Source of the DNA: Patescibacteria group bacterium
GTDB taxonomy: Bacteria; Patescibacteriota; Patescibacteriia; UBA1558; GWA2-36-10
Assembly: GCA_028718865.1 (NCBI GenBank)
Contig: JAQUKX010000001.1
Span: 67 to 64,066, forward strand
Direction of reading: 5' to 3'
Length of the DNA: 64,000 nt
In this document: positions 4,786 to 63,642 of the stretch, piece by piece
Numbering within the stretch: the stretch's first letter is position 1
Layout: every line of letters begins with the position of its first letter
The notes under the pieces: generated by a model
Databases searched by the model: none
Seen by the model: only the letters and a program-made list of their open reading frames with translations
What the model was told of the DNA's origin: nothing
Program-made: the position numbers and the translations under genes

Positions 4786-4811
4786 CTTTATTAATAATTT
4801 AGTTTATATTT

Positions 4812-5300
4812 TTAGCGGGTAACCTGAATAACTACGTTTTCATAACTAACACAAGCGCCTACTTTTATAACTCCATTGGCATCAGCGTATAAATAATAAC
4901 CCGTACTATCCGCTGTAAAACCGCCTAATGGATCAGATGGTATTGCTCCTAAATAACCTTCTGACACTAGAGTGCTCAAATCTAAATAAGCGTCGGTGGT
5001 GGTAGCATGTGGGGTGGCAACTGCGCAATGCGTAGAACCGCTTCCTCCACTAGTTATTTGATAAGTAGTGCCAGGATTAGCTACTGCCGGAGCAGTACCT
5101 CCTTCATCAGCCACATAAAGAGCCCAAGCGCTAGCAATAGAAGTCACATCCGCCCATCTTTGGGCATTATTGGCTTCACCGATACGACGAGCCGGGTTGA
5201 TAGCCACAAAAGTAGCACCTGCCAAGAGGGCAATGATAGCTACCACGATGATAAGCTCTATCAAAGTAAAGCCTTTATTTTTTTTCAAAATTTTTTTCAT
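4812..5300 (-). CDS. Type IV major pilin paralog 2
   Basis: The N-terminal ~60 aa are identical to paralog 1 (KGFTLIELIIVVAIIALLAGATFVAINPARRIGEAN…). The C-terminal half diverges. Confidence 0.85.
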   Translation of the reverse strand: MKKILKKNKGFTLIELIIVVAIIALLAGATFVAINPARRIGEANNAQRWADVTSIASAWALYVADEGGTAPAVANPGTTYQITSGGSGSTHCAVATPHATTTDAYLDLSTLVSEGYLGAIPSDPLGGFTADSTGYYLYADANGVIKVGACVSYENVVIQVTR

Positions 5301-5334
5301 TTTTCTATACTTAATAATTTATCTATAATATATT

Positions 5335-5814
5335 TTAACGCATGACTTCTATAGGACCGCCAGCATAAGCGCTGGTATAGCAAGCGCCTATTCTCAATAC
5401 TCCATCATCCATGCGCAGATAATAGGCAGTGCGCGGACTAGTGGTGGCCGGATCACTAGGTATCTGGCCAATATAGCCGCCACTAATCAAGGAGCTAAGG
5501 TCTAAATATTGAACAGTGCTGGTAGCATCAGTGCCGTCAACACAATGACTAACCGGACTGGGAGTAATTGCTCCTCTGATTTGATAAACAACACCCGAGC
5601 TTAGAGAGGCTGGAAGCTCTCCGTAATTATCAGTCACATAAAGAGCCCAGGCATTGGCTACAGCCGTGATGTCAGTCCATCTTTGGGCATCATTGGCTTC
5701 ACCAATACGCTTGGCTGGGTTGAGAGCCACAAAAGTAGCGCCCGCCAAGAGGGCAATAATGGCTACCACGATTATAAGTTCTATCAAAGTAAAACCCTGT
5801 CTTTGTTTAATCAT
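5335..5814 (-). CDS. Type IV major pilin paralog 3
   Basis: QGFTLIELIIVVAIIALLAGATFVALNPAKRIGEANDAQRW… has a conserved N-terminus and a divergent C-terminus. Confidence 0.85.
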   Translation of the reverse strand: MIKQRQGFTLIELIIVVAIIALLAGATFVALNPAKRIGEANDAQRWTDITAVANAWALYVTDNYGELPASLSSGVVYQIRGAITPSPVSHCVDGTDATSTVQYLDLSSLISGGYIGQIPSDPATTSPRTAYYLRMDDGVLRIGACYTSAYAGGPIEVMR

Positions 5815-5905
5815 AAAATATTAACAATTCCAAATTTATCCAAAATATATATAAATATCAAAAAGATTACAGACTGATTATAGCATATTTTACTTTTAGC
5901 GCCAA

Positions 5906-7681: not shown

Positions 7682-7702
7682 AATAAATAATAATTTATAT
7701 CT

Positions 7703-8797
7703 TTATTCTACTACAGTTATATTCAAATACATAGAGTAGTCGCCAGCGTATTCGTAAGATCTGATAGAAAGCTCTCGGCTATAGCCTGCTCCTGGATCTT
7801 CCACACCTATGAGAAATCTGGTTTTGCCGGTCTTGTTGATATAAGCCAATTGGCCTGATGTCAGTTTATAAAAATACCAGCCGGCTGATAAAAAAGTGCC
7901 ATTGTGGATAATATGCCACTGACTACCGGAAAAAACCTGAATATAAAAAGTCTTGGTCGGTTGAGCGGTCTTGGGCGGAGCACCGGTAGTATAATCATGC
8001 AAATATAAATAAAGATCCGCTTCCAAGATAACTGCATCATCTGACAAAGCACTGGTATTGATATCAGCATAAGAAAAAGAAGTGACCGCTGGCTCAAAAA
8101 CGGCATTATAGGTTGCCAATAGCGTTGTGGCATCATCAACTGTTCCTTGAGTAGTGTGCACATACCAATCATCACTGCCAGCAGCTATCTGATAATCATA
8201 GATTGGACACTCGCCGCAATCCTCTGGACAAGTCTGGCAATTTTCCTCTCCATTACAGCTGGCATCGCCGCAATAAGCCGACGATACATAATCAGGCAAG
8301 GCTGCGCGAGCAGTGAGCTCTAGAGCTGTGCCATAGCTCTGGCAGGCGCCAAAGACAATCTGTCTATCCCCTTGACGGCTGATATAATAGCCCGAGTCTA
8401 GAGCTGATTCTTTGCTTGGATCAACTGGCAAGCTGGAGAGATAATTTGTTAAAAAATCACCACTGACCACTACGCAAGACAAGTTCTGACCGTCACAGCT
8501 CAAAGTCGCAGCACTGGAACATAATACCCGCTTTTCTCCTTGAGCCAAGTCTTCCAAATCAAAAAACTCCGGCAGCTCGTCATTGTCTAATTGATAAAGC
8601 TCTATAGCTCGAGAAATTCTGGCCAAGTCTTCGACTCTTTTGGCATCTTGGGCTTTGCCAATTTTATCTTCAGAATTGACTGATAAAAAGACTACTAGGG
8701 AAACAATAGCCAAAATCGCGACTGCCAATACCACCTCCATCAGTCCAAAGGCCTGGCGATTTTCAATTATTTTATTTTTCTTGCTATATTTTTTCAT
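7703..8797 (-). CDS. Minor pilin-like protein with a Cys-rich C-terminal region
   Basis: The N-terminus …RQA|FGLMEVVLAVAILAIV is prepilin-like with Glu+5 if cleaved after Ala. The C-terminus contains CGDASCNGEENCQTCPEDCGECP. Confidence 0.5.
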   Translation of the reverse strand: MKKYSKKNKIIENRQAFGLMEVVLAVAILAIVSLVVFLSVNSEDKIGKAQDAKRVEDLARISRAIELYQLDNDELPEFFDLEDLAQGEKRVLCSSAATLSCDGQNLSCVVVSGDFLTNYLSSLPVDPSKESALDSGYYISRQGDRQIVFGACQSYGTALELTARAALPDYVSSAYCGDASCNGEENCQTCPEDCGECPIYDYQIAAGSDDWYVHTTQGTVDDATTLLATYNAVFEPAVTSFSYADINTSALSDDAVILEADLYLYLHDYTTGAPPKTAQPTKTFYIQVFSGSQWHIIHNGTFLSAGWYFYKLTSGQLAYINKTGKTRFLIGVEDPGAGYSRELSIRSYEYAGDYSMYLNITVVE

Positions 8798-8806
8798 ATA
8801 TTTTAT

Positions 8807-9655
8807 TTATAAACATAAATTGGTACAGATAGTACAGCCTTGGCAATATGTTTCACGATTACAACCGACCGGAAAAGTATAACATTGATTGCCCGCGTCA
8901 CTTCCAGTATAATCACAAGTTTCATTTCTAGTAACATAGCCTGAGCAAGTGCTGTTGCAAAAATTGCCGTTCTGTACTATACCGTCTCCGCAAGAGCCGG
9001 CATTTTGTGGTGGATCGCAAACCTCTGGGGCTTGTACTGTACTATCACCGCAAGATCCCTCATAAGGCACGCCTGCCGTACAAGCCATCTCACAGGACTC
9101 ATTGCAGGAAAGAGCGCCTCCCAAAGAACAGCTCCATCCGGACAAGCCGCTGGGGTCAGCTGATCCGTCGCATTCCTCTGTTTGCTCATCCCAAACACCA
9201 TCGCCACAATAGCCGGCCGAACTAGCCGAGGCATAAGCTGATTGATCATTTTTGTAGCTATAGACTGAAATAGGCGTAGAAGAGACATTGATTGTGGCAA
9301 TAACCGAGCTTTGCCAAAAGCCAAGCGAAGAAGTACTGCTGGCTGAAAGCAAAACTTCTTTTAAGCCGGACATTATCTCAGTGGCAATTTCATAATCGCA
9401 GTCTATGCCTATCCCCGCCAAAGAAAAATAACCTGCTTCAGCATAATCCGATGATAAGCGCAGCAGAGCTTCATCCAAACAAGCTGCCAGCTTAGCCTCC
9501 ACCATCGCTCTTTCACTGATCTGATAATCTGCTTGGCTGTCGGAAATATTAATCAAAGAAATAGATACTGCTGCCAGAAGAGTAAGCGCTGTGATCATTA
9601 TCACCATTATCAAAGCAATTGCTCCTTGATTTTTTATTTTTATAAACTCAAGCAT
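8807..9655 (-). CDS. Minor pilin-like protein with Myxococcus-type cysteine-rich repeats (CGDGxxxxxEECD)
   Basis: The N-terminal hydrophobic segment QGAIALIMVIMITALTLLAAV lacks Glu+5. The C-terminus has CGDGVWDEQTEECDG … CGDGIVQNGNFCNSTC, matching the TIGR02232-type repeat from memory. Confidence 0.45.
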   Translation of the reverse strand: MLEFIKIKNQGAIALIMVIMITALTLLAAVSISLINISDSQADYQISERAMVEAKLAACLDEALLRLSSDYAEAGYFSLAGIGIDCDYEIATEIMSGLKEVLLSASSTSSLGFWQSSVIATINVSSTPISVYSYKNDQSAYASASSAGYCGDGVWDEQTEECDGSADPSGLSGWSCSLGGALSCNESCEMACTAGVPYEGSCGDSTVQAPEVCDPPQNAGSCGDGIVQNGNFCNSTCSGYVTRNETCDYTGSDAGNQCYTFPVGCNRETYCQGCTICTNLCL

Positions 9656-9679
9656 AAGTATATTTATTTGTTTATTTTA

Positions 9680-10990
9680 TCAATAATCACCCGCCGATTG
9701 TAAAGCCGCCAGCTCGGCGTTGCTCAAAGCGCGATTGTAAAAACGAACTTCATCAACAATACCGTGAAAAGCTGTAAGAAAATTAATATAAGGACCATCG
9801 GTTATAGTATTGACCAGCTTGATAATGGGAGTTGAAGCACTGAAATTAACCACCACTCCTGTTCCTACTCTATAAGCATAAGCTTTTAATAATTCCTGCT
9901 CATAATCATAAATGCAAGCCAAAAAATAAGTTTGAGCGGCACCTATGACACTGACATTTGAATAAACTTGCTGGTAAGCATTATCATCATAAATGCGGCA
10001 ATAAAAACGCCCATCTTCTCCATCAATAAACATATGATATCCTCTTTGATTGCCTGTATCTGCTTTAAAAATAATAGAATGCTCGGGATCTTCCAAAACC
10101 TCAGGTTTCACCCAAGCGGTCAAAGAAAAAGCATCGCCAAAATTCAAATCATCGGGATTAGTCGGACTGTCAGGAGCGCAATTGGAAGTATTGCCATCAG
10201 CATAAGGAAAGTCAAGAGCATAACTACTGCCGTCAATCAAGCCGGCAATATAATCAGGGCTCGTGATGCCACTGCAATCAGCGTCATTATCACCTGCGCT
10301 ATCTAAAGCAGTCGTTCCCGAGCCTTCTTCAAAGCGCCACCAAGTCACTGGCCCGCGAGACTGGGCAGCCAAAACAGCTACAGTGCTGGTAGCCGCTGAA
10401 ATATCCTTGAGCTCTGACTGACCAGCTACTAGAGAGCCTAAAGCCAAATAACTGTCTATAGAAATGTAATCACTACTGATAGATGAGCCCTCGGCCAGAG
10501 AAAAATCAAGCCCATTGTCCAAAACTGCCAAGCTGGGCGAGCTAAGATAATAAACATTTTGCGCTGGATAATAACTATCATCGCAATTTTTATGATAGCC
10601 ATTTCCCGGCATATCAGGATGACAACTGATTGCCAATCGCCTATCTTTAAGATTGATTTTGACGCCGCCGCCTGTCCCAACGCAAGCTCCGGGCAAATGC
10701 TCATCATCGGCAAAATAAAGCGCTAACAGCGAAGGCGAAGAGGAAAACTCCGAACAATAACCCAAAGTATCCTGCAAGAGTCCGTCGGAATTTTTTATCA
10801 AATAATCCAGAGCTGCCAAAGACAGGCGGCGGCTGGCGGAGGCTTCTGTTTTGGCTGACAGCTTAGCGTAATTATTTCCCAAGACCAAATTCAAATTTAT
10901 CACTGAGGTAAGTAAAATCGCCACAATGGCCAGATAGACCACTGTCTCTACTAAGGTAAAGCCTGATTTTTTTAATTTTATTTTCCTCAT
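9680..10990 (-). CDS. Pseudopilin with a C-terminal LamG-like (concanavalin A-like lectin/glucanase) domain
   Basis: N-terminus KKSG|FTLVETVVYLAIVAILL with Glu+5. The C-terminus …DEVRFYNRALSNAELAALQ is the characteristic Laminin_G_3 terminal motif. Confidence 0.65.
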   Translation of the reverse strand: MRKIKLKKSGFTLVETVVYLAIVAILLTSVINLNLVLGNNYAKLSAKTEASASRRLSLAALDYLIKNSDGLLQDTLGYCSEFSSSPSLLALYFADDEHLPGACVGTGGGVKINLKDRRLAISCHPDMPGNGYHKNCDDSYYPAQNVYYLSSPSLAVLDNGLDFSLAEGSSISSDYISIDSYLALGSLVAGQSELKDISAATSTVAVLAAQSRGPVTWWRFEEGSGTTALDSAGDNDADCSGITSPDYIAGLIDGSSYALDFPYADGNTSNCAPDSPTNPDDLNFGDAFSLTAWVKPEVLEDPEHSIIFKADTGNQRGYHMFIDGEDGRFYCRIYDDNAYQQVYSNVSVIGAAQTYFLACIYDYEQELLKAYAYRVGTGVVVNFSASTPIIKLVNTITDGPYINFLTAFHGIVDEVRFYNRALSNAELAALQSAGDY

Positions 10991-12966
10991 CTATAATCTA
11001 TCTTCAAAGAATAAAGCGTCGGCGTATCAGCATTGCCGTTGCAGGCCGTCAAAGTGGCCTTATATCTAAGATAACGATAACCATTTAAAATATCAGGCGT
11101 GCTGCTGGCATAAGAAGAACCGTTATCGCTAAAAGTATGAGCAACCGGACTGGCAAAAGAGCTGCTGTTGTCCGCTTCCAAGTCTACACTCACTGAACAG
11201 CCCGCAGGCACATCTTGGCTCACCGATATGGCTCGCAACTCCTTATCACTGGCGCCCAGATCAAAAATTGAAGAATAAATATAGCCAGGAGAATTGTAAC
11301 CGGACAGACCCATTTCCTCCTCAGCTCCAACCGCAAAAAAAGTGGACGGCGAGCTTTGATTATTATATTCTGTTTTTATCCAATCAACATTTCTAAGTAT
11401 ATTAGAAACTTTTAATTCATCAATTATACCATCAAAAGCCCTATCCGTAGCATTGGAACGATTGCCTATTCTAACACCAGAGGTAGATGTTATTCCCGAC
11501 AAAGCATTAGTAGCCCCAACCGATCCACTTTGCACTCCGTTGATATAAAAAGTAGTAGTGCCATTGGCCGCCACTGTCACTACCACATGATACCAGGTGC
11601 TGCCATTATAATTGATGCTACCGGAAGCCGAAGTTCTAATCAAAGCGCCGGCGGCGGTAAAACTAACATAAGTGCTCTGACAAAAAAGTACCCAACCAGC
11701 TTGAGCTGAAGAGCCGTTGGACTTATCTATTATTCTGCCTGAACTAGCTCCTCCTAAAGTATCCGGCTTCATCCAAACCGATATGGTCATTCCTGAAGTC
11801 AACAATTGGCTAGAATGATGGGGAATATTGACATAATCATTGGAGCCGTCGTAATCTTGAGCCTTACCTATTCTTCCATTTATTTCCACCGGCTCCCCGC
11901 TTGCTTTTTTAGTACCCTGATTATTGGCATTAGCGCTATTTTTTATAGCCGAAGACGATCCATCGGGTTTATGATAAACCATTATATGATAATCATCCCA
12001 AGTATTATAAACATCCTCCTGACTAGTACTAATATCTCCATTTCCATAAAACATATAAATTATCGTATCAGTATTTCCCGGTAAAGCAGGAATTTTTACC
12101 CAAGCAATCAATTCGCCTGTGGCTGGATTATATCTTTCTATTTCATGAGATAATTGATTTGCTCCTTCTTCATCAGAAGTGAAAATAATATCATAGCCGT
12201 TAGCGCTTTCTACTTTACCGCCGTTGGCTGTGCTTTTCAAATAATCCTCAGTCAAAGAAACAAGCATAGGAAAATCAACGTGCGAAAGATCGCCTGACAC
12301 CTTAGTGTTATCTATAGTTATTGTCCGTCTATAATTATAAGATCCAGGAGAAAAAGATAAATCAAGTTGACTGGGAGTAGAAGTGCTCACATTGCTATAA
12401 ACAGTAGAAAACATATCTGCCTCTGACCAAAAAGCTCTGGCGCCATTGCCTGACCAGTCGCTCTGCCGCCAGCTCTGATAAGACCAGTTGCTCAAATAAG
12501 CGCTTAGCACATAATCGCTTATCCCCGGCCCGGAAACTGTCACTATTACTTTGTAAGTATTGAGATCTAAGCTGCCGCCCTCTGAGACGATATTGCCGCT
12601 TTCATCACGATATACATCTTCTATTTCCACTGTCCGGCTCAAAACTCCCAAACTGTCGCTAGTGCCGGCAAACTGCCAGTTTCCCCCGCTGTCTTTGGAC
12701 GCTCCCAGAGCTCCCTGGCCGGCAGCATCTTCTATGGCCTGCCAGCTATTGTCTCTGATGGCTCTGGCTGCTGAGAGTCCTTCCTGAGCAAATTTGGCTA
12801 CCTGCTGCCGGTCGCCGGCGCCAAAAAAATTGCGGTAAGAATTGGTAGCTACATAAAATACTCCCGCGGTTAAAATAGAAAATATTGCCAAGGCAGCTAT
12901 TACTTCCATCAAAGAAAAACCTTTTTGCCCCAGCTGATTTTTATATTTTAATATTTTAAAACTCAT
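10987..12966 (-). CDS. Large pseudopilin (659 aa) with a C-terminal LamG-like domain
   Basis: N-terminus QKG|FSLMEVIAALAIFSIL. The C-terminus …DELKVSNILRNVDWIKTEYNNQ is the LamG-3 terminal motif. The start overlaps the downstream gene by 4 bp (ATGA coupling). Confidence 0.65.
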   Translation of the reverse strand: MSFKILKYKNQLGQKGFSLMEVIAALAIFSILTAGVFYVATNSYRNFFGAGDRQQVAKFAQEGLSAARAIRDNSWQAIEDAAGQGALGASKDSGGNWQFAGTSDSLGVLSRTVEIEDVYRDESGNIVSEGGSLDLNTYKVIVTVSGPGISDYVLSAYLSNWSYQSWRQSDWSGNGARAFWSEADMFSTVYSNVSTSTPSQLDLSFSPGSYNYRRTITIDNTKVSGDLSHVDFPMLVSLTEDYLKSTANGGKVESANGYDIIFTSDEEGANQLSHEIERYNPATGELIAWVKIPALPGNTDTIIYMFYGNGDISTSQEDVYNTWDDYHIMVYHKPDGSSSAIKNSANANNQGTKKASGEPVEINGRIGKAQDYDGSNDYVNIPHHSSQLLTSGMTISVWMKPDTLGGASSGRIIDKSNGSSAQAGWVLFCQSTYVSFTAAGALIRTSASGSINYNGSTWYHVVVTVAANGTTTFYINGVQSGSVGATNALSGITSTSGVRIGNRSNATDRAFDGIIDELKVSNILRNVDWIKTEYNNQSSPSTFFAVGAEEEMGLSGYNSPGYIYSSIFDLGASDKELRAISVSQDVPAGCSVSVDLEADNSSSFASPVAHTFSDNGSSYASSTPDILNGYRYLRYKATLTACNGNADTPTLYSLKIDYR

Positions 12967-12970
12967 AATT

Positions 12971-14029
12971 TTAATAATCTTTTAGACACCTGACCGACAG
13001 GCCGTAGCTCTTGTCCAAGTTGGCGCTGTTGAAATTAGCGTCGTTTTCATTGTAATAATAAACTGCCTGACTGCCGTCATACTGACTGGAAGTCCAAAAA
13101 AAAGCTTTGCTGCCATTATCGGCAAAAGCGCCGCCGCCACTAGTATTTCTCTGTCCGGCCAAAAGCAGATTGAATCCCGACTGGCCGCCTATAGCCAACT
13201 CATTGCCCGGCAAAGCATAAAGCCCGGCTAAGGCTGCCCATTGAGCGCTAGTGGGCAGATGCCAGCCGGCCGGACAAATGCCTCGGGCTCCTTCGCCAGT
13301 ACCATAAGCCATCAATTCATCCCAGCTATACAAACCGCCATAGATATCGCAATTAGCTTCGCTATTACCATAGCACCATTTTTCTAAAATATCATTATCA
13401 CTAGGATTACTTATAGCGCTTTCTAGCATCTGACCGCTATTGAGATTTTCCGCCAGCCAGCAATTGTCAGCTATTTCCACAGTATTATAAGCCTGACCTT
13501 GACTGTCATAGGCTTTGCTCTGGCCGCAGGTAAAAACATAAGCCAAGCCGCTGGGCAAAACCCGGACGCTTTTTTTCAGGCCAAAATTGCTCTCCAGAGC
13601 AATATCTTCCTCCTCACCGCTAGATAGCCAGCCGCTGCCAAAAGTAAAATAAAATTCCCGCTCCTGATTATCAGCCAAGTAAACGCCGGAATTGCGCTCG
13701 CCAAAATTCAATTGGCGATCAAAAGCACTATCCCTATCATCATAAAAATTGCCTTTGAACAAAATCAAACAATCCCCGTCCGACGAGCAATCGTCGCTCT
13801 GCGACAAAACCTTTATACCCCAGACATCGCCCATGTAGCCGCTGCGGGAATAATTCTGAGCGCGGCTGACAATGTCAGCTACTTCTCTGGCTTTGGCGTC
13901 AATATCATCTTCAAAAACTCGCGAATTCAAAACCGTAAAAGCGCCGGCCAAAATAATCAAAAAAACCGCTACTATCAAAAGCACTTCCACCAAAGTAAAG
14001 GCTCTTTGTTGTTTGCAAAAAAATATCAT
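12971..14029 (-). CDS. Pseudopilin with a Fibrobacter-succinogenes-major-paralogous-type domain (FISUMP, CPxGWHLP…W signature)
   Basis: N-terminus QQRA|FTLVEVLLIVAVFLIIL. The C-terminus contains CPAGWHLPTSAQWAAL, the hallmark of TIGR02145. Confidence 0.55.
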   Translation of the reverse strand: MIFFCKQQRAFTLVEVLLIVAVFLIILAGAFTVLNSRVFEDDIDAKAREVADIVSRAQNYSRSGYMGDVWGIKVLSQSDDCSSDGDCLILFKGNFYDDRDSAFDRQLNFGERNSGVYLADNQEREFYFTFGSGWLSSGEEEDIALESNFGLKKSVRVLPSGLAYVFTCGQSKAYDSQGQAYNTVEIADNCWLAENLNSGQMLESAISNPSDNDILEKWCYGNSEANCDIYGGLYSWDELMAYGTGEGARGICPAGWHLPTSAQWAALAGLYALPGNELAIGGQSGFNLLLAGQRNTSGGGAFADNGSKAFFWTSSQYDGSQAVYYYNENDANFNSANLDKSYGLSVRCLKDY

Positions 14030-22004: not shown

Positions 22005-22214
22005 CTGTCATTACGAGGAATCCTGAGTCTGCCATTCTGGAGCGAGCGTAGCGAGCGATAGAATCCACTTGTCATTCTGGAGCGAGCGTAGCGAGCGATA
22101 GAATCTACCATTATTCCTTCCTCAGAGCATCGAGCGATAGAATCTACCATTGCAACCGCCTTCTTAGATTCTATCAGTCGTCGCTAGCTCCTCCTTCCAC
22201 AATGACAAAACAAA
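22005..22214 (+). repeat. Mosaic intergenic repeat cluster: two copies of the TGTCATTCTGGAGCGAGCGTAGCGAGCGATAGAATCYAC module, one CCATT…CCTCAGAGCATCGAGCGATAGAATCTAC module and one inverted GATAGAATC
   Basis: Direct reading. The same modules recur at seven or more other loci in the window. Confidence 0.8.
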
Positions 22215-35184: not shown

Positions 35185-35432
35185 ATCATTCCTTTTGTCA
35201 TTCTGGAGCGAGCGTAGCGAGCGATAGAATCTACCATTGTCCTTACCTCAAAGCATCGAGCGATAGAATCCTTCTGTCATTCCCGATTTTTTATGTCATT
35301 CCCGCGAAAGCGGGAATCTACTTTGAGATGAGTAAGAGCTAGATTCCGGCTCGGGGGCCGGAATGACAAGAAAAAAACCTGTCATTCCCGTCCCCGCCTT
35401 CGCGGGGATAAACTCCAGCGGGAATCTACGCC
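35185..35432 (+). repeat. Mosaic repeat cluster containing perfect hairpins: ATTCCCGC-GAAA-GCGGGAAT, ATTCCGGC-TCGGGG-GCCGGAAT and CCCCGC-CTTC-GCGGGG
   Basis: Direct reading. The cluster lies between two minus-strand glycosyltransferase genes and shares modules with the clusters at 46740-47355. Confidence 0.8.
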
Positions 35433-38959: not shown

Positions 38960-39250
38960 ATGAACAAACAATACTTTGTTTATATTTTAGCTAGCTATAA
39001 ACACGGAACCTTGTATACAGGAATAATAAGTGATTTAAGTAAACGAATATTACAGCATAAAGAAAAATTCTATCCTCAATCTTTTACTGCTAAATACAAT
39101 ATAAATAAACTGGTTTATTATGAAATACATGAAGATCCTTATGAGGCAATATCCAGAGAAAAACAAATTAAAAACTTATTACGGATTAAAAAAATAAAAT
39201 TAATTGAAGAAAAAAATCCTAACTGGCAAGATCTACATAATGAGCTATAA
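38960..39250 (+). CDS. GIY-YIG nuclease family protein (stand-alone 96-aa domain)
   Basis: YFVYILASYKHGTLYTGIISDLSKRILQHKE matches the GIY-YIG catalytic motifs (GIY…YTG…R…QH…E). Confidence 0.75.
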   Translation: MNKQYFVYILASYKHGTLYTGIISDLSKRILQHKEKFYPQSFTAKYNINKLVYYEIHEDPYEAISREKQIKNLLRIKKIKLIEEKNPNWQDLHNEL

Positions 39251-39306
39251 GCCTGTCCTTCTGGAGCGAGCGTAGCGAGCGATAGAACCTACCATTATTC
39301 CTTATT
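39251..39306 (+). repeat. Single copy of the TGTCCTTCTGGAGCGAGCGTAGCGAGCGATAGAACCTACCATT repeat module
   Basis: Direct reading. It abuts the GIY-YIG stop codon. Confidence 0.7.
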
Positions 39307-39344
39307 AAATCAAAAACCAGCCCATATCGGCCGGTTTTTTTAGT

Positions 39345-41528: not shown

Positions 41529-41584
41529 AACTTAATTTATTTTACTTGTCATTGCCGAGCGAGGCGGGCGTATGCTCATCCACT

Positions 41585-41710
41585 TGTCATTCTGGAGCGA
41601 GCGTAGCGAGCGATAGAATCCACCATTGTCATTCTGGAGCGAGCGTAGCGAGCGATAGAATCCACCATTGTCATTCTGGAGCGAGCGTAGCGAGCGATAG
41701 AACCTACCAT
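41585..41710 (+). repeat. Three contiguous copies of the 42-bp unit TGTCATTCTGGAGCGAGCGTAGCGAGCGATAGAATCCACCAT, preceded by a related degenerate copy at 41546-41584
   Basis: Direct reading. There are no spacers, so it is not CRISPR. It produces the spurious ORF 41546..41791. Confidence 0.9.
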
Positions 41711-41740
41711 TGCCCTTACCTCAAAGCACAAACAAAACCC

Positions 41741-42511
41741 CTACTCCAAATCCAAAAGCATCTGCAAACGATCTATTTCCTGTTGCTCTAGACTGCCCAC
41801 TACCTTTTCATACTCCCGCCACATTTCCACTGCCCTTGAATAATCCTGCTTAGTTCTTTCCAGATAATAAGCATATTCTTTATAAATATTCCTTCTGGTA
41901 GCCGAATTTTTGATGCCTGTCTGATAAATATCATCAGCCTTGAGCGGATCATTGGAATAACTGACATACAGACTAGCCAGTCGTGTATAAGTCTGCTCCT
42001 CATTAGGATAAAGCTCCAGCGCTCTATAGAGATGTTTAGCTGACTCCTGATATTGCCCCATCATTACATAAAGCGTGGATAAACTAATTATAGTTTTATA
42101 ATCTTCCGGCCATTTTTCCAGCAAGCGGAAATAATGCTCCTCAGCCAGAGCATTTTGCCCCAGCAAATAATAATTATAAGCGATCATATAATAATCCTCT
42201 TTGAGATCAGTAAACTGGGGCTGGGAAGGCTCATTGCTCTCTATTGCTGCCTCTGACTTGGCGATTTCCGCCATGACCATAGCCTTGAAATCTTCCGGCG
42301 GCTCTACTGCCCCTACCTCTATTCTCTCTGGATTATTTTCGAAATATTTTTGAGCATCAGCTGAGTCAAAAAACGCCTCTTGTTGGCTGTCTTGAGCTCT
42401 CTGATAGCTGTTATAAGCCCAAATTATGCCAATAGCGAGTATAATGGCCAAAACCAACAACCAAATGCCTTTTGGTCTGTTTTTTGCCTGATTTATTTCA
42501 TTACTTTCCAT
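41741..42511 (-). CDS. TPR-repeat protein with N-terminal membrane anchor
   Basis: N-terminal TM (IWLLVLAIILAIGIIWA) and multiple TPR-like helices. Confidence 0.6.
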   Translation of the reverse strand: MESNEINQAKNRPKGIWLLVLAIILAIGIIWAYNSYQRAQDSQQEAFFDSADAQKYFENNPERIEVGAVEPPEDFKAMVMAEIAKSEAAIESNEPSQPQFTDLKEDYYMIAYNYYLLGQNALAEEHYFRLLEKWPEDYKTIISLSTLYVMMGQYQESAKHLYRALELYPNEEQTYTRLASLYVSYSNDPLKADDIYQTGIKNSATRRNIYKEYAYYLERTKQDYSRAVEMWREYEKVVGSLEQQEIDRLQMLLDLE

Positions 42512-42572: not shown

Positions 42573-42775
42573 GGCAATGTCATTAAGCCTGTCATTCTGG
42601 AGGGAGTCGGGCGTATGCCCGACGACCGATAGAATCCACCATCTGTCATTCTGGAGCGAACGCAGTGAGCGATAGAATCTACTTGTCATTCTGGAGCGAA
42701 CGCAGTGAGCGATAGAATCCACCATTGTCTCTGCCTCAAAGTATCGAGTAATAAAACCCGTCTGTCATCCCGCCC
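42573..42775 (+). repeat. Mosaic repeat cluster: B-type module with the GTCGGGC-GTAT-GCCCGAC hairpin plus two TGTCATTCTGGAGCGAACGCAGTGAGCGATAGAATC modules and a CCATTGTCTCTGCCTCAAAG module
   Basis: Direct reading. Confidence 0.8.
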
Positions 42776-42860: not shown

Positions 42861-45800
42861 TTACAGAGTAACTGCAATTGTTTGGGTGTCGGTTGGTAAG
42901 TTCTTGACATAAGTGGAATCTAGCCAGTCTGAAGATGTTCCGTCTGCCAAGTGAGGCACAGCAGAACGATCAGACCAGATAAAGCCAGTTTCGTAAAGGC
43001 TGATTAGAGTATAAGTAGTAGAAGTACCAGCTGTAGCTGCGGCTGCTGAAGCATTGATATAAGTACTCAATTGCTTATAACCTGATCCATCTAAGCCAAT
43101 ACCTGCCTTCAATTCATAGGTCTGGCTAGCGCCAGCAGCAATAGTCTGCTCCTGGGTAGTAGTGACAGTAATCAAGCTACCGCTTGGTGTCCAGCTGACA
43201 TTTGACTCGTTCAAAGCTGAGGAGTCTCCCTGTTTGTACAACTTGACGCTATTGGCATCAATAGTCACGCCAATTGAGGAAGCTGTAGTAAAGGAAATTT
43301 GTCTCCAGCTTAGAGGAGCTACGGCATCAGCCGTGACGGTAAAGCGGGAAATAGTCTGAGTGCCTCCAGCCAAAATAGTGGTAGGCAAAGCGGCCAAGGT
43401 AATAGTTGGCTTAGTAGCTCTCACTATCATGGAATTACCATTAACGGGACCTCCCGTGTAAGTATATCCTGTCACACCAGATGACTCGCCCTGGGCACTA
43501 AAGACAGTGGCACTGCCAGTAGAAGCCACTAGGTCTAATCTAGCTGAATTACCTGATACTCCGCCTTGGTTGGCAATAGTGGTCAAGTCAGCTTTGACGG
43601 TTAATACCGCTGTGCTGTCTTTAGCCACATACATACCTAGATTGTAGAACTGAGCTACTCCACTTCCGTCCAAGTATCCATAAGCAGTGGCCGTACCGGT
43701 CTTAGTTGGGTATTCTAGTACTACTCTAGAAATTGTGGCTGCTACACCACTAGCACCGGTAATCTGCAAAGTGTTGATGAAATGCGCTTCGTTTGTAGCG
43801 CTAAATTCAACAGCATTGAGAGTAACGGCTGGCAATCCAGCTACCACAATAGTAGCATCTGGTCGGCTGCCAGCAGCATTAGCTGTAACAGCTCCAGCAG
43901 CAATTGCCATGGTCTGCAAAGTATCTCCGGCGGCAACCTGATTAGTGTTGGTCACTTTAGAAGTACCCTCACCAGCTACTACCAAAGTAATAACAGCTGA
44001 TGGTAGTCCTGATTTGACATCTGCATAGACATCCACCACTTTACTCTGACCAGCATTGAGCGACAGCTTATTGCCGACATTGAAGGTAGTAGTGCCTGAA
44101 GTAGGCATAGTCACGCGGGTAGCCAATTCAGTAGTACCCTGCATCAATTTGACATTGGATACTTCGCCAGAAGTAGCTCCGCTTAGGTAAATGACATTGA
44201 CGTCAATACCTTCAGTAGCACCAGCGCTCACAGTAAATGCGCCAATTCTGGCATTGAGAGCTGGCGAAGTTACATTTTGGTTACCATAAGCAGCAAACTT
44301 AGCCATAGACAATGCTGATTCAGTAACAGTCAAGGTATTACCTTCTGCTCCAGGCACAGTGACTGTCTGCAAGGAAACTTGTCCTTGAGCGTCATTGCCA
44401 GCACTGATTTCTACTTTTACCAATCCACTGGTAATGTCTACACCAGTAGCTGTCTTGATATCCGCATAGATATCCAGCATTTTGGCTGTACCAGCTGGCA
44501 CAATCAAGCTAGAGCCAAAAGTAAAGTTGACATCGGTATCTTCAGTCAAGTTCCTAGTAGAACCAACTTGTACACCATCAAAATAAACTTTACCGTTTTG
44601 TAAACCGCCATTAAGAGCAATAGAAGTAGTGGCTTTTACATTCAAGCTCCTAACTCTTACATCCTCACCAGAAGCCTCTACCTTAAAGGTAGCCAATTTT
44701 ACATTGGTGGCCTTAGCTGCTACTTGTCCGCTAGGAGAAGTATTGTCTCTGACTATGGACAAAGTACCAGCTTGGATTTCAAATTGTCCAGAAGCAGTCA
44801 AAGCTGACCATGAAGTGCTGCCAGAAGTAAATGACTGGGTAAACACTCCATAACCCATGTCTTTGACTATGATGTCAGAAGCATCTCGGACATCAAATTT
44901 AAATGTTCGAGTAGATCCTTTGACAATGTCAATTACCATGGACAAGGTGCGAGTATTGCCTTTGGCAATAGCATAAGGAGAATTGGACAAGTCAAAGAAA
45001 ACCTCTCCGTCCGCATTCATAGTAGCTGTGCCAATAGTAACACCGGCTACTTGCAAGCGGAAATTATCCACATCACCTACGCCAATACTGCCGATTTTGG
45101 TCAAACGCAATCCATGTAAGTGAAGATCCTGATCAGTAGCAGTTAAGCTGATTTTGAAAGCTTCAAAATCTTTTTCATCGGAATTAACCTCAACTGTTCC
45201 AGTTGGGATCATAGTACCGGTGATAACTGCATAGCCAAGATCAGTTGCTTGAGCAGTGCTCATCACATTACCGACCAAAGGATAAGAGCCGGATAGTGAA
45301 GAAGCATTGCTTACTACTTCAGTCAAGTTAAAACCAATGGTCTTACTGGCTGAAGTTGGAACTTCCAAATCAGCTTTTAGCCAGACAGTTCTGGTAGCTC
45401 CAGCTGGAATGGTGATAATACCACTAGCTGAAGTGTCATTGAAGGTCAAAATCTTGGAAGATAGCGAACCTCCTTCTACCAATCTTTCACTGCCATAATA
45501 CAAATAGGCATTGCGAATGTCGCTGTCAGCGGAAATGCCTGTTCTCTCAAATTTCATTTGAGTGACCCTGACACTGCCAGCTGAAGAAGCAGTCAAGTTC
45601 ACTGCCAAAAATGGCACTAAAGCTTGAGCAGTGTTACTATCATCAGAAATGATAGTGGCTGACACTGGGTTGTTGGCTGACATAGATAGAGTCAAGCCAC
45701 CAGCTGGTGTAACCGGAGTAGAGCCTTCGGCCGGCATAAATCCGGACAAAGCTACTTCCTCACCAGTGATGGATGATCCCATGCTCCAGCCGGAAACATT

Positions 45801-46418
45801 GGGCACGCTGATGACATTGCTGTATTTGAAGCCATTGACTTCAAAAGCATCGGCATCGGCAAATGGCCTTACCTGGCTGCTGCTGGAGACATAGTAAATG
45901 TCTGAACCAACCTGCAACAAGGTTCCGATTGGGTGGGTGCTTCCCAAATCAGATCCAGCTACATAGCTGGATGAGAAATAGCCCGGAATTACATCCATTA
46001 CTCTGGAAGCCCAGTTGGCTCCATAGAGATTTGAGGCTACTTCAGCTGTAGGAATCCAGCGGATGACTCCGCCCGGCTCCACAGCGTAAACGCGAGCTGT
46101 ATTCTCGTGGGTAATCAATTTGGTACCAGCACGATAGGTGACAGCTCCGCCGTCTGGATACATATCCAGCTCGGCTACGCTTACTCTGACTACGTCATTG
46201 AAGTTCTCATACCAAGTGAAATAAGTCTTGGCATCAGGAAAGACATATTTCCTTCCATCAGAACCAATGTAGTAGACAGCTGCATCCTTAGCGCCTTGTA
46301 GAGCAAGCAAAGATCCTGCTCCATAGCTACCAGCTGCATCTACTTTTAGTCCTCCAAGGGACCATAGGACAGTGGTAAGCATCAAAGCGAAAACAAGAAA
46401 TCTTTTTGTTAAATTCAT
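42861..46418 (-). CDS. Large secreted surface protein (1185 aa), a putative S-layer or adhesin with Thr/Ser/Ala/Gly-rich beta-repeat architecture
   Basis: Signal peptide MNLTKRFLVFALMLTTVLWSLGGLKVDAAG. There is no C-terminal TM or sorting motif. Low-complexity beta-rich repeats occur throughout. Confidence 0.65.
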   Translation of the reverse strand: MNLTKRFLVFALMLTTVLWSLGGLKVDAAGSYGAGSLLALQGAKDAAVYYIGSDGRKYVFPDAKTYFTWYENFNDVVRVSVAELDMYPDGGAVTYRAGTKLITHENTARVYAVEPGGVIRWIPTAEVASNLYGANWASRVMDVIPGYFSSSYVAGSDLGSTHPIGTLLQVGSDIYYVSSSSQVRPFADADAFEVNGFKYSNVISVPNVSGWSMGSSITGEEVALSGFMPAEGSTPVTPAGGLTLSMSANNPVSATIISDDSNTAQALVPFLAVNLTASSAGSVRVTQMKFERTGISADSDIRNAYLYYGSERLVEGGSLSSKILTFNDTSASGIITIPAGATRTVWLKADLEVPTSASKTIGFNLTEVVSNASSLSGSYPLVGNVMSTAQATDLGYAVITGTMIPTGTVEVNSDEKDFEAFKISLTATDQDLHLHGLRLTKIGSIGVGDVDNFRLQVAGVTIGTATMNADGEVFFDLSNSPYAIAKGNTRTLSMVIDIVKGSTRTFKFDVRDASDIIVKDMGYGVFTQSFTSGSTSWSALTASGQFEIQAGTLSIVRDNTSPSGQVAAKATNVKLATFKVEASGEDVRVRSLNVKATTSIALNGGLQNGKVYFDGVQVGSTRNLTEDTDVNFTFGSSLIVPAGTAKMLDIYADIKTATGVDITSGLVKVEISAGNDAQGQVSLQTVTVPGAEGNTLTVTESALSMAKFAAYGNQNVTSPALNARIGAFTVSAGATEGIDVNVIYLSGATSGEVSNVKLMQGTTELATRVTMPTSGTTTFNVGNKLSLNAGQSKVVDVYADVKSGLPSAVITLVVAGEGTSKVTNTNQVAAGDTLQTMAIAAGAVTANAAGSRPDATIVVAGLPAVTLNAVEFSATNEAHFINTLQITGASGVAATISRVVLEYPTKTGTATAYGYLDGSGVAQFYNLGMYVAKDSTAVLTVKADLTTIANQGGVSGNSARLDLVASTGSATVFSAQGESSGVTGYTYTGGPVNGNSMIVRATKPTITLAALPTTILAGGTQTISRFTVTADAVAPLSWRQISFTTASSIGVTIDANSVKLYKQGDSSALNESNVSWTPSGSLITVTTTQEQTIAAGASQTYELKAGIGLDGSGYKQLSTYINASAAAATAGTSTTYTLISLYETGFIWSDRSAVPHLADGTSSDWLDSTYVKNLPTDTQTIAVTL

Positions 46419-46739
46419 TTTGTCTTCTTTTGTTAACTTGTTCGCTAAACCATGTTTTTCCTTCTATTTTATGGACATCTGCTTGCCTCGGGCAAGCTGA
46501 CTAAAACCATCGCGCCAGGTCCCTCGGAAAAATCCGAGCCGACCTTTCAGGCCCCTGGACCGACAGGCCCAAAAAACGAGGGGGAAAAGCAAAATGTTTA
46601 GGAACATTAATTAGATCCCGCAAGCAAAGCACCGCTTTCTGCCTTCTTAAGTAAAGCTTTGGCGGCGACCTTGTCCTTTTTGGACAAAATCTTACGGGGA
46701 TAACCCCTAAATCGCGCGCGATTAAGCGATAAGTTAGGG
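46419..46739 (-). promoter_or_regulatory. Long GC-rich structured 5' leader/promoter region of the surface-protein gene, with several hairpins and the 14-bp perfect palindrome AATCGCGCGCGATT (46710-46723)
   Basis: Visible hairpins are GCTTGCC-TCG-GGCAAGC, GGTCCCTCGG-AAAAAT-CCGAGCCGACC and GGGG-ATAA-CCCC. The region is markedly more GC-rich than its surroundings and contains no credible ORF. Confidence 0.4.
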
Positions 46740-46960
46740 ATATTAGCTTTTGTCATTCTGGAGCGAGCGTAGCGACCATCTGTCATTCTGGAGCGAGCGT
46801 AGCGAGCGATAGAATCTACCATTGTCTCTGCCTCAAAGCACCGAGCGATAGAATCTACAGACCGTTCCTTTCAGTCATTCCCGTCCCCGCCTTCGCGGGG
46901 ATAAACTCCAGCGGGAATCTACTTTGAGATAAAGAGAATCGATAGAATCCACTTGTCATC
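46740..46960 (+). repeat. Mosaic repeat cluster (A, E, C and D modules)
   Basis: Direct reading. It produces the spurious ORF 46607..46822. Confidence 0.8.
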
Positions 46961-47084
46961 AGACAAATCCAGACAAAAACTCATACCCTCAACCTAACGC
47001 TTCTGGCGTGACTAGCGCCAATCGCGTCTGTTAAGAGGTTTGTATTATAAATTATTAAATAACTATTATCATTGCGATGCCAAT

Positions 47085-47355
47085 CGTAGCGACCACCTGT
47101 CATTCTGGAGCGAGCGTAGCGAGCGATAGAATCTACCATTGTCTCTGCCTCAAAGCACCGAGCGATAGAATCTACCATTGTCTCTGCCTCAAAGCACCGA
47201 GCGATAGAATCTACAGACCATTCCTTTCAGTCATTCCCGTCCCCGCCTTCGCGGGGATAAACTCCAGCGACCTTCTTTTCAGTCATTCCCGCGAAAGCGG
47301 GAATCTACTTTGAGATAAAGAGAATCGATAGAATCTACCATTGTCTCTGCCTCAA
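47085..47355 (+). repeat. Mosaic repeat cluster: an A module, two copies of a 45-bp E-type unit (CGAGCGATAGAATCTACCATTGTCTCTGCCTCAAAGCAC...), then C and D modules and a terminal E module
   Basis: Direct reading. It produces the spurious ORFs 46981..47178 and 47077..47313. Confidence 0.85.
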
Positions 47356-47370
47356 ATATAACCCACTCTC

Positions 47371-48708
47371 TTATTCCGGCAATTTAGCCGGCACACTAGA
47401 AGCCGACACTTGCCCTACCTCCGCGCTCAAATCATCAATAATATTAGGATCTATAGTATCGTGGCTTTGAATGGCTTTTCTTAACTCTTCCAAAATTGCA
47501 TCTGCCTTGTCATAACTTTCTTTGATCTGATAAATCTTTTCAAAAGCATCTCGCAAAAATCCTTCTTCCATCAGCTCTTTTGCTTCTTGCAAAATCCGAA
47601 CTTCTTCCGCTGATTCTTTGATGCCTTGGACATCCTTGATTCTCTCGCCGATATTATTGAGCTGTATTGGCTCTTTTTCCAAAACAACTGGCTGAGTGCT
47701 GGAAGCAGCTTCACTGGATACTACTTCAGCTCTTTGCTTCATCTCGTCTATCTTAGAGCCAGCATCAGCGATTTCCGATTCTACTATTTCCCTGACCAAT
47801 TTGTTCAATTTCTCCAAATCACTATTGCCCAAGCCCATTTTCTTTATCATTTCTGCCGTACTGGTCTCATTGATTATCTGCCTAGCGATCTCATTGGTGT
47901 CAGGCTGATTATCGGCTGATTGTCCGGCAACCAGAGCTGCCAGAAGCGCTTCTTCTTGTATTTTTATAGCCAGACCGACTGCCGAACGCTTGACTCCCTC
48001 ACTCACTTCTCTAGCTCCAGATAAAGTCAGTTGTATTTCCGGATTATTGACTGCCTGAATCGCCTTGGCTTTGGCATCTAAAGAAGATGACACTTGTTTG
48101 CTGGATTGAGCTATTTTTTTGATAAGCTCTACCGCTTCTACGGGAGATTTTTGCTCTTTGACAATCTGTAGCGAACTATCTACCGCTGTGACATCTCTTT
48201 CTAAGTGCCTAACCGCTTCTCTGATGGCTTTTTCTTTTCTTTCGCTTTTCTGCTCGCTGTTGTTTTCTGTCTGTAGAATTTTGTCTATCTCACTCAATCT
48301 TTCATTGACATGTTTGAAATAAATTTCTGCTTCCTGACTGGAGCTGCGAGCCAGAGAAAGCTCTACCTTTTCCATAGAGCGCTTGACCGGCCAAAGCGGC
48401 TGTCCGGGCACTGATGCCTGCGCTCCCAGTCGCAATCCAAAGCCCAAGCTCAAAACCAAAAATACTGCCACCACCCGAGTAAAGGAAAATGACAGTCTGC
48501 TCAAAAATGACGTAAAAAATAAATCAGCCTTTTGGGAAAAAGGAGTTTCTGCTTGGCGCATCAGCTTGCTTTGGGAAGCAATCTCTGACAGCAGCTCATA
48601 TTTTGTTTTGGCTGCCCAGTTTTTATCCGGCTGAAGCTCCGGCATATTTTTCAACTGGGAAATTTTTCTAGTCAAACTCATTTTGAGTTGTTTATTGCTT
48701 TTGATCAA
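47371..48708 (-). CDS. Putative anti-sigma factor / membrane protein with an extracytoplasmic coiled-coil domain (DUF5667-like)
   Basis: It overlaps the ECF sigma gene by 17 bp. A single TM (VVAVFLVLSLGFGL) sits ~90 aa from the N-terminus, followed by a long Glu/Lys-rich coiled coil. Confidence 0.5.
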   Translation of the reverse strand: MIKSNKQLKMSLTRKISQLKNMPELQPDKNWAAKTKYELLSEIASQSKLMRQAETPFSQKADLFFTSFLSRLSFSFTRVVAVFLVLSLGFGLRLGAQASVPGQPLWPVKRSMEKVELSLARSSSQEAEIYFKHVNERLSEIDKILQTENNSEQKSERKEKAIREAVRHLERDVTAVDSSLQIVKEQKSPVEAVELIKKIAQSSKQVSSSLDAKAKAIQAVNNPEIQLTLSGAREVSEGVKRSAVGLAIKIQEEALLAALVAGQSADNQPDTNEIARQIINETSTAEMIKKMGLGNSDLEKLNKLVREIVESEIADAGSKIDEMKQRAEVVSSEAASSTQPVVLEKEPIQLNNIGERIKDVQGIKESAEEVRILQEAKELMEEGFLRDAFEKIYQIKESYDKADAILEELRKAIQSHDTIDPNIIDDLSAEVGQVSASSVPAKLPE

Positions 48709-49429: not shown

Positions 49430-49575
49430 TTTCTGTCATTCTGGAGGGAGTCGGGCACGTGCCCGACGACCGATAGAATCTACTTGTCATTCTGGAGCGA
49501 ACGCAGTGAGCGATAGAATCCACCATTGTCCCTACCTCAAAGCATCAAGCGATAGAATCCCTTTGTAATTCCCTC
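49430..49575 (+). repeat. Mosaic repeat cluster (B-type module with the GTCGGGC-ACGT-GCCCGAC hairpin, an A-variant and an E module)
   Basis: Direct reading. Confidence 0.8.
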
Positions 49576-63598: not shown

Positions 63599-63642
63599 AA
63601 TTATTGCTTATGGCTTGTTGCTTATGGCTTATTGTTTATAAT

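Follow-up and report, generated by a model that had tools for sequence, protein, structure and literature searches.

In this study we describe a family of short hairpin repeats residing in a 64,000-nt stretch (hereafter the window) of contig JAQUKX010000001.1, part of a metagenome-assembled genome (MAG) of a Patescibacteria group bacterium, together with a small gene of the same window (38960-39250, forward strand) encoding a GIY-YIG protein of 96 aa. The repeats carrying the 12-mer GATAGAATCYAC probably represent targets of this predicted nuclease, akin to the Neisseria Transformation Sequence (NTS) and other Ssn-related motifs (SRM), and we would put the chance that this is so at roughly three in four. 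What they add to the Ssn/SRM system is a host of the Patescibacteria, an arrangement in tandem arrays of common orientation and a hairpin subtype that is extended. The 12-mer itself, singled out in an initial annotation of this DNA as a candidate DNA-uptake or other orientation-dependent signal, is not an independent word, since it forms the 3' terminus of hairpin repeats that are strand-specific.

The first description of the Ssn/NTS system dates from 2025, and experiments on its biology are so far limited to Neisseria. The NTS, whose consensus is CGTCATTCCCGCGMAVGCGGGAATCYRG, was generalised to SRM by Chenal et al. (Nat Commun 2025, PMC11893778). SsnA, a 94-aa single-domain GIY-YIG protein (cd10448), binds and cuts exclusively the forward strand of the motif, exclusively as single-stranded DNA (ssDNA), a few nucleotides upstream of it. 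The C that follows the palindrome is most important for binding and the three bases that precede it for cleavage, while cutting survives removal of the loop or extension of the stem; the loop and distal stem are dispensable, and it is the stem base and the flanks that are read. The ssnA genes are typically flanked by their own motifs, and the NTS-ssnA-NTS arrangement was suggested to be a possible domesticated mobile unit. In N. meningitidis the Ssn system reduces transformation by NTS-bearing DNA; 2% of NTS lie in genes (34% of DNA uptake sequences, DUS, do so), and NTS cluster near surface-protein genes. Patescibacteria go unmentioned in that work (PMC11893778). The Ssn biochemistry and the reduced recombination referred to below come from this literature, while the unit anatomy, protein homology, gene-repeat association and inner-helix covariation are results of the present analysis.

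The 12-mer and the hairpin repeats that carry it

The window contains 18 exact copies of GATAGAATCYAC, all of them on the forward strand and none on the reverse, where dinucleotide-preserving shuffles of the window predict 0.01 copies. The 9-mer core GATAGAATC is present 20 times on the forward strand and once on the reverse (ending at 22175), and inexact copies of the 12-mer are found as degenerate tails (35262 and 49551) and as GAACC variants (39281 and 41696), which agrees with the approximately 22 forward copies and the single inverted one that had been counted by eye. The copies are confined to intergenic arrays, seven or eight in number, which lie at 22.0, 35.2, 39.3, 41.6, 42.6, 46.8/47.1 and 49.5 kb, with 7 of the 18 exact ones falling within 46740-47355. 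Open reading frames (ORFs) of at least 80 aa make up about 93% of the window, and credible genes contain none of the 18 copies; the sole ORF overlapping any of them (41546-41791, 81 aa) is itself built from repeat units. The initial annotation was therefore right that the word is over-represented, that it lives in repeat clusters and that it avoids coding sequence. Beyond the arrays the window contains no exact copy, nor is the word enriched there when mismatches are allowed (3 matches with at most two mismatches, as against 7.4 expected for the whole window).

This confinement bears directly on the proposal that the 12-mer is an uptake sequence resembling DUS or the uptake signal sequences (USS) of Pasteurellaceae, recognised by a minor pilin receptor of the type IV pilus and favouring self DNA. 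A short and strongly over-represented word would suit such a role, as would the large type IV pilus locus of the window (4255-14029, at least eight prepilin-type genes) and the fact that Patescibacteria can be naturally competent, as documented for cultivated representatives (PMC10633639). However, genuine DUS in 206 kb of N. gonorrhoeae are dispersed at about 0.73 per kb and evenly split between the strands (76 forward, 74 reverse), whereas within the window the 12-mer is missing from genes despite the high coding density, occurs in tandem at a spacing of 39-42 bp and has no copies beyond the larger repeat, the very outcome that the initial annotation had named as speaking against its uptake-sequence reading. 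The suggested link to a ComP-type pilin found no support either, since the eight prepilin-type ORFs match N_methyl and lectin-like domains only and none matches Pfam ComP_DUS, although a novel receptor is still conceivable. Moreover, the head and tail of the repeat recur together in 53 loci of several phyla (see below), so that the motif is not lineage-specific and cannot mark kin DNA. Taken together, an uptake function appears extremely improbable.

Most of the 12-mers (12 of the 18) form the end of an A-type unit of approximately 38-49 nt, which consists of the head (T)GTCATTCTGGAG, an inner segment and the tail CGATAGAATCYAC. A further four end a 39-nt B unit (CATTGTCYYTRCCTCAAAGCAYCGAGCGATAGAATCYAC), and the remaining two are orphan tails preceded by GAGATAAAGAGAATC. 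Interleaved with these in the arrays are NTS-like units, namely GTCATTCCCGCGAAAGCGGGAATCTAC (two forward copies and one variant reverse copy) and a longer form, GTCATTCCCGTCCCCGCCTTCGCGGGGATAAACTCCAGCGGGAATCTAC. A GTCATTC head and a GAATCYAC tail are common to the 12-mer-bearing and the NTS-like units. When the eight arrays are aligned, they share an A-B core of about 78 nt, before which a variable number of additional A units is placed; tandem repetition within arrays has periods of 39 and 42 bp at 97-100% identity. In total, about 28 units or half-units face forward and two face backward across 28 kb (Table 1).

The anatomy of the 12-mer is readily understood from the predicted fold of the A-type unit, which comprises a basal stem ATTCTG/TAGAAT (including one G.T pair), a 2x2 internal loop with GA opposite GA, and an inner helix. 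GAT constitutes the 3' side of the tandem G.A loop and AGAAT the 3' arm of the basal stem, pairing with ATTCT of the head; the following C occupies the position found by Chenal et al. to be the most critical for SsnA binding (PMC11893778), and the terminal YAC is the 3' flank, where the NTS has YRG. The predicted folding energies as DNA are -9.4 kcal/mol for the NTS-like unit, -14.1 for its longer form and -11.5 for the long A-type unit (z -2.7 for the last).

The two forward GTCATTCCCGCGAAAGCGGGAATCTAC copies are near-identical to the NTS consensus. The published SRM pattern, HGTCWYN(0-2)YYVSBRHN(0-5)WNVSBRGN(0-2)RNCYNB, matches the window at just two positions (Table 1), with 0.1 matches expected. 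The more general layout of a GTC(W)(Y) head, a stem and a C followed by Y-N-B is shared by all 14 A-type units (one of which has GCC for GTC), all three N-type units and both complete D-type units, and a detector built on the GTC head, stem and C returned 21 matches in the window with about two expected. All 12-mer copies are intergenic and the arrays lie around surface-related genes, as was reported for NTS.

The Ssn-like gene and its association with the repeats

The 96-aa protein is a clear homolog of SsnA, with a predicted nuclease activity. Its Pfam GIY-YIG domain spans residues 4-77 and no additional domain is present; no NCBIfam model covers it. The AlphaFold2 model (pLDDT 95.7) has the GIY-YIG fold, the nearest structures in the PDB being UPF0213, Slx1 and the N-terminal domain of UvrC. 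Compared with the SsnA ortholog of N. gonorrhoeae, 51% of its residues are identical across 86 aa (coverage about 90%, pairwise E 6e-30), and the same match was recovered by tblastn in PLSDB with E 3e-11 against 7.3 Gb; these values lie within the limits set for SsnA homologs (blastp E < 1e-10 with at least 75% coverage, PMC11893778). Residues Y8, Y19 and E67 align with Y6, Y17 and E64 of SsnA and are invariant in 28 homologs. The gonococcal ortholog was translated from NZ_CP119142.1 and was recognised by its NTS-gene-NTS context (it is flanked by nine NTS) and by a numbering that matches Y6, Y17 and E64. Its ORF begins with IICTVY and has no in-frame ATG start. NZ_CP119142.1 (loci L068-L072) and NZ_CP119140.1 are listed as plasmids in PLSDB; they are really 2.17-Mb N. 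gonorrhoeae chromosomes, and they provided the benchmark for DUS and NTS.

A degenerate A-type unit begins 4 nt past the stop codon of the ssn-like gene. In an independent assembly of the same organism, a 3600-bp Logan contig (SRR22315506) breaks 38 nt past this gene, at the start of the repeat, and arrays of this kind are likely to lie behind many contig ends of MAGs like this one.

Related units were sought in 185,579 species genomes with the pattern GTCATTCTGGAG-N15-30-GATAGAATCYAC, a range that leaves out the commonest unit of the window with its 14-nt gap. By their record labels, the 53 matching loci come from several groups of Patescibacteria, from Saccharibacteria, Fibrobacter and Christensenellaceae/Clostridia, and from Gammaproteobacteria MAGs. 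A metagenome scan for the commonest A variant yielded only one locus, seen three times. In the 53 distinct copies, of which the search fixed 24 terminal bases so that only the inner segments were free to vary, the first variable pair is paired in 47 (CG in 27, GC in 14 and TA in 6), as compared with a mean of 24 and a maximum of 33 in shuffles, and the fifth variable pair is likewise paired in 47. The mean folding z relative to shuffles of the inner segment is -2.8. Syntenic sites in different MAGs have kept the termini and altered the inner helix by compensatory substitutions, which argues for selection acting on the element and not for recent copying. Conserved ends combined with a free, covarying inner helix are what might be expected of targets of an ssDNA-acting protein that reads the stem base and the flanks, and the dispensability of the loop and distal stem in the Ssn system fits this pattern across phyla.

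The forward strand folds more stably than its complement in 52 of the 53 copies, which is consistent with the cleavage of the forward strand only by SsnA. It could also point to a function at the RNA level, with the units acting in transcripts of the flanking genes, for instance to terminate them, to stabilise their 3' ends or to mark processing sites. Such a role would agree with the G.A pairs and with a conserved G.U pair, and many units of other genomes lie 3-25 nt past a stop codon in the sense direction; their relation to the flanking genes is nevertheless inconsistent (19 sense, 13 antisense, 5 convergent and 1 divergent). In the window, most flanking genes read the units in antisense, and the reverse complement present in their transcripts would be the weaker form; a T-run is not seen after the units, no Rfam family corresponds to them, and the RNA form of NTS is not bound by SsnA (PMC11893778). 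A role as RNA thus seems to us very unlikely.

The association between gene and repeat is not restricted to the window. Homologs of its protein lie 4-5 nt from A-type units in three other loci (L011, L022 and L044), and a GTC-stem-C hairpin was found within 57 nt of all four homolog genes that had been retrieved through the protein and not through the repeat. These come from a closely related member of the Patescibacteria that shares the synteny of the glycan locus (L058), from an unrelated contig with two such genes (L061) and from a lineage of Clostridiaceae (L062). Altogether, a unit is found no farther than 47 nt from 7 of 10 GIY-YIG genes, as compared with 16% of other ORFs.

In the Clostridiaceae lineage (BRH_c20a-like; L062 10001-10288, also L063-L067) the GIY-YIG homolog resides inside a type IV/competence-pilus operon with the gene order PilB, PilT, PilC, 103-aa ORF, GIY-YIG, pilin, PilD, pilins, ComFB, PilM, PilN, and an SRM-like hairpin is placed 57 nt upstream of it. 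The Ssn-like gene is there physically linked to the DNA-uptake machinery.

The recurrent proximity of gene and repeat bears on the view that the units are selfish elements, similar to repetitive extragenic palindromic (REP) sequences, their hairpin doublets (REPINs) or miniature inverted-repeat transposable elements (MITEs), whose transposase is encoded elsewhere and for which the GIY-YIG gene is an unrelated neighbour. REP sequences have heads in which a tetranucleotide of the GTAG or GTGG type precedes the palindrome, and the reverse strand of the window units begins with GTAG or GTGG followed by a palindrome. The mosaics resemble bacterial interspersed mosaic elements (BIMEs), the A-B composite recurring in all eight arrays; arrays 5 and 7 are paralogous copies (one repeat family, 92% identity over 51 nt), and convergent pairs are common in other genomes. 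On the other hand, neither Y1_Tnp/RAYT (the REP-associated tyrosine transposase) nor another transposase was found among 54 scanned ORFs of the window, the recurrent neighbour of the units is a GIY-YIG gene, and the compensatory changes at syntenic sites leave the termini intact. We consider this explanation unlikely on the whole, while a REP-like origin or mode of spread is possible and would be compatible with recognition of the units by an Ssn nuclease.

Several observations weigh against the assignment of the repeats to the Ssn system. Just one side of the ssn-like gene is flanked by a repeat, a degenerate copy. No more than 2 of about 19 complete units fit the published SRM pattern, and the 12-mer-bearing A-type units do not fit it at all. 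The commonest A variant is a weak predicted hairpin (-2.5 kcal/mol as DNA, z +0.8). Tandem sheared G.A motifs of the CGAG/CGAG type are stabilising, and stability of this variant would need its two tandem G.A motifs, which the nearest-neighbour model does not credit. The B unit has no predicted structure and no counterpart in the other loci examined; together with the orphan tails it accounts for 6 of the 18 12-mers, which have no 5' partner, and the Ssn model leaves both unexplained. Finally, the near-uniform orientation of the window units is foreign to the family: NTS in 206 kb of N. gonorrhoeae are found 12 times on the forward and 8 times on the reverse strand (9 versus 11 relative to skew), and 143 units in 447 kb of other loci are split 75 versus 68 relative to skew.

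Orientation of the arrays and their proposed role

The near-uniform orientation is real within the window and without parallel in the family. The genes flanking the arrays run in all four combinations of directions (forward/forward at 22 kb, forward/reverse at 39 kb, reverse/forward at 49.5 kb and reverse/reverse elsewhere), and it is literally true, as had been claimed, that the motif keeps its orientation whatever the direction of the neighbouring genes. This claim is however weakly tested by the window, since the reverse strand carries about 90% of its coding sequence. GC skew is negative throughout, the forward strand having a lagging-strand composition, so that, given the gene directions, the whole window lies within one replichore.

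A uniform orientation over 28 kb of one replichore is also what would be expected of a replication-oriented polar signal of the Chi type or of the FtsK-orienting polar sequence (KOPS) type, read by RecBCD/AddAB or FtsK, as the initial annotation had alternatively suggested. Chi and KOPS sites are octamers that are scattered, genes included, and concentrated on the leading strand, whereas the motif of the window lies on the C-rich lagging strand, opposite the ribosomal-protein and SecY genes, and is clustered at 39-42 bp spacing in only seven or eight intergenic arrays, often in tandem. Elements with the same termini lack polarity elsewhere, and we give this alternative hardly any credence.

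The other genomes offer little evidence of a replication polarity across the family. Their units occur on both strands, often as convergent pairs about 13-17 nt apart, and those from the 53-locus scan show no consistent orientation with respect to local GC skew (27 versus 23). The split among the other loci becomes 63 versus 44 at |skew| > 0.05 (p = 0.08) and 49 versus 29 at |skew| > 0.08 (p = 0.03, uncorrected and from non-independent loci), a weak excess on the C-rich strand that is not convincing.

Taking into account the properties of SsnA, we propose that a unit whose forward strand becomes single-stranded would fold, be bound by the GIY-YIG nuclease encoded at 38960-39250 and be cut a few nucleotides upstream. 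The window protein may thus cleave both its A-type and its NTS-like units, and, by analogy with N. meningitidis, incoming transforming ssDNA carrying the arrays would be cut, which would limit or shape recombination at the loci that they bracket. These loci comprise Wzy/TPR (tetratricopeptide repeat) glycan genes, the gene for a 1185-aa signal-peptide protein, an ECF sigma/DUF5667 pair and sugar-transferase/epimerase genes. The initial annotation had correctly recognised a strand-specific signal within intergenic hairpins, and a relative of this signal does act on transformation; the uptake role that it had in mind is not borne out, since the effect of NTS and SsnA consists in cutting the incoming ssDNA and is opposite to that of DUS (PMC11893778).

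That the co-orientation has a function of its own is a more tentative reading, which we regard as rather unlikely. The arrays might in that case delimit surface-glycan and surface-protein cassettes, with one incoming strand being cut on both sides of each. The forward strand is the leading-strand template (and the template strand of most genes) and would therefore rarely be single-stranded in the cell's own chromosome. Placing the units on this strand would minimise self-cleavage at replication forks, an attractive idea that draws on one region and, in the closest relative, on a single unit. The co-orientation could just as well stem from the A-B composite having spread locally, given that arrays 5 and 7 are paralogous. 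A functional co-orientation would resemble in its logic the replication-oriented attC sites of sedentary chromosomal integrons, and it would add a further level to the Ssn system in a bacterium that is ultra-small and naturally competent.

Features of the window and comparison with known systems

The positions of the arrays and of the ssn-like gene are compiled in Table 1.

Table 1. Repeat arrays and the ssn-like gene, in window coordinates
Feature	Position	Strand	Composition	12-mer starts	SRM pattern match
Array 1	22005-22207	+	mini hairpin 22007; A 22031-22068, 22071-22108; B 22109-22147	22057, 22097, 22136	
Array 1, inverted degenerate unit	22164-22207	-			
Array 2	35195-35429	+	A 35197-35234; B 35235-35273; truncated head 35276	35223	
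Array 2, NTS-like units		+ and -	canonical 35295-35321 (+); inverted 35339-35367 (-); long 35381-35429 (+)		35294-35321
ssn-like gene	38960-39250	+	96-aa single-domain GIY-YIG; candidate cognate ssDNA endonuclease of the repeats		
Array 3	39253-39310	+	degenerate A-type 39255-39292 (ending GATAGAACCTAC), then decayed B unit		
Array 4	41547-41730	+	variant unit 41548-41583; A 41586-41623, 41628-41665, 41670-41707 (42-bp period); B remnant	41612, 41654	
Array 5	42589-42760	+	long A-type 42591-42639 with perfect inner hairpin; A 42645-42682, 42685-42722; B remnant	42628, 42671, 42711	
Array 6a	46750-46952	+	truncated head 46752-46779; A 46782-46819; B 46820-46858; long NTS-like 46874-46922; orphan tail 46926-46952	46808, 46847, 46941	
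Array 6b	47085-47356	+	A 47099-47136; identical B units 47137-47175, 47176-47214 (39-bp period, 100% identity)	47125, 47164, 47203, 47327	
Array 6b, rest		+	truncated long unit 47230-47268; canonical NTS-like 47282-47308; orphan tail 47312-47338; B-unit start		47281-47308
Array 7	49433-49565	+	long A-type 49435-49483; A 49486-49523; B 49524-49562	49472, 49512	

Besides the type IV pilus locus, the window contains a surface-glycan locus, a pair of genes for an ECF (extracytoplasmic function) sigma factor and a DUF5667 protein, and the spc ribosomal operon with secY. At the end of the pilus locus (4255-5814, reverse strand) there is a tandem of three paralogous prepilin genes (176, 162 and 159 aa), which have in common a stretch of 194 nt with 78-88% identity; larger pilin-like proteins of this locus contain Laminin_G_3, DUF2341 and Fib_succ_major domains, and a CheA/CheW/MCP/response-regulator set adjoins PilB. 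The segment 24000-36000, densely filled with glycosyltransferase, methyltransferase and asparagine-synthase genes, has a GC content of 0.31-0.36 (0.40-0.45 elsewhere) and a stronger negative GC skew; it probably represents a surface-glycan locus that is variable or was acquired horizontally. An N-terminal signal peptide and a high content of Thr, Ser, Ala and Gly characterise the 1185-aa ORF (42861-46418, reverse strand), which has arrays on both sides; Pfam gave no match for it even at E 0.1, and it probably encodes a large surface protein. Between its start and array 6a lies a GC-rich non-coding stretch of 320 nt (46419-46740) with no Rfam match, into which a 71-aa ORF (46607-46822, reverse strand, ending KILSKKDKVAAKALLKKAESGALLAGSN) extends from the repeats; the stretch and this ORF may be a gene remnant.

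Heptamer tandem repeats that are similar to each other and unrelated to the hairpins (TATGGCT at 2414-2458 and TTATTGC at 63601-63639, 5.6-6.4 copies) occupy intergenic positions 61 kb apart. The window contains no tRNAs and has no match among viral contigs, and Rfam at gathering thresholds gave no match in it. The only weak Rfam match, RF02748 (FtrB, a Francisella small RNA, sRNA; 47267-47383, forward strand, 20.7 bits, E 1.2), is explained by the NTS-like hairpin AGUCAUUCCCGCGuAGGCGGGAAUCUC contained in the FtrB consensus, and this Francisella 'sRNA' may thus include an SRM.

The window places a clear SsnA homolog and its accompanying repeats in the Patescibacteria, a group reliant on type IV pili and DNA uptake. 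Its hairpins include a subtype missed by the published pattern, with an ATTCT/AGAAT base, tandem G.A loops and identical ends in several phyla, and it shows head-to-tail arrays bracketing cell-surface genes. Concrete substrates and a protein are thereby offered for probing the breadth of Ssn specificity. For genome annotation, the repeats account for a class of spurious small ORFs and of contig breaks.

Among the known repeat families, several invite comparison. Neisserial dRS3 elements share an ATTCCC-N8-GGGAAT core and form intergenic mosaic arrays in which repeat units are mixed with spacer modules; dRS3 is however a symmetric 20-mer only, whereas the window units are oriented by their flanks and mostly have ATTCT, not ATTCCC, at the stem base. 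With the REP/BIME-RAYT and REPIN systems the window units have in common that they are short extragenic hairpins with a conserved tetranucleotide by the stem, arranged in mosaic clusters and convergent doublets, and that a small nuclease with copies flanking its gene recognises them as ssDNA (a prediction in the case of the window). The difference lies in the associated protein, which is of the GIY-YIG and not of the HUH/Y1 type, the window having no RAYT. The Neisseria DUS and Pasteurellaceae USS are likewise short over-represented words connected with natural transformation in hosts that have type IV pili, but they are dispersed, frequent in genes, strand-symmetric, lineage-specific and promote uptake via a pilin receptor, none of which applies to the window motif. 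As an analogy only, the attC sites of integrons may be mentioned, since they too are co-oriented ssDNA-folding sites with conserved ends, variable centres and one reactive strand that bracket genes; the window lacks an integrase and an R/L box consensus, and nothing in it points to the excision of cassettes.

The closest similarity is to the SRM and NTS themselves. Most window units differ from these in a longer stem with an ATTCT/AGAAT base and conserved tandem G.A loops, in their arrangement in head-to-tail, almost uniformly co-oriented arrays with orphan half-units, and in their host, a Patescibacteria MAG whose Ssn system is a predicted one. They share with them the GTC(A)(T) head, the imperfect palindrome, the C directly after the stem and the non-palindromic flanks that confer orientation, as well as an intergenic location near surface-related genes and a single-domain GIY-YIG gene of about 95 aa beside a copy.

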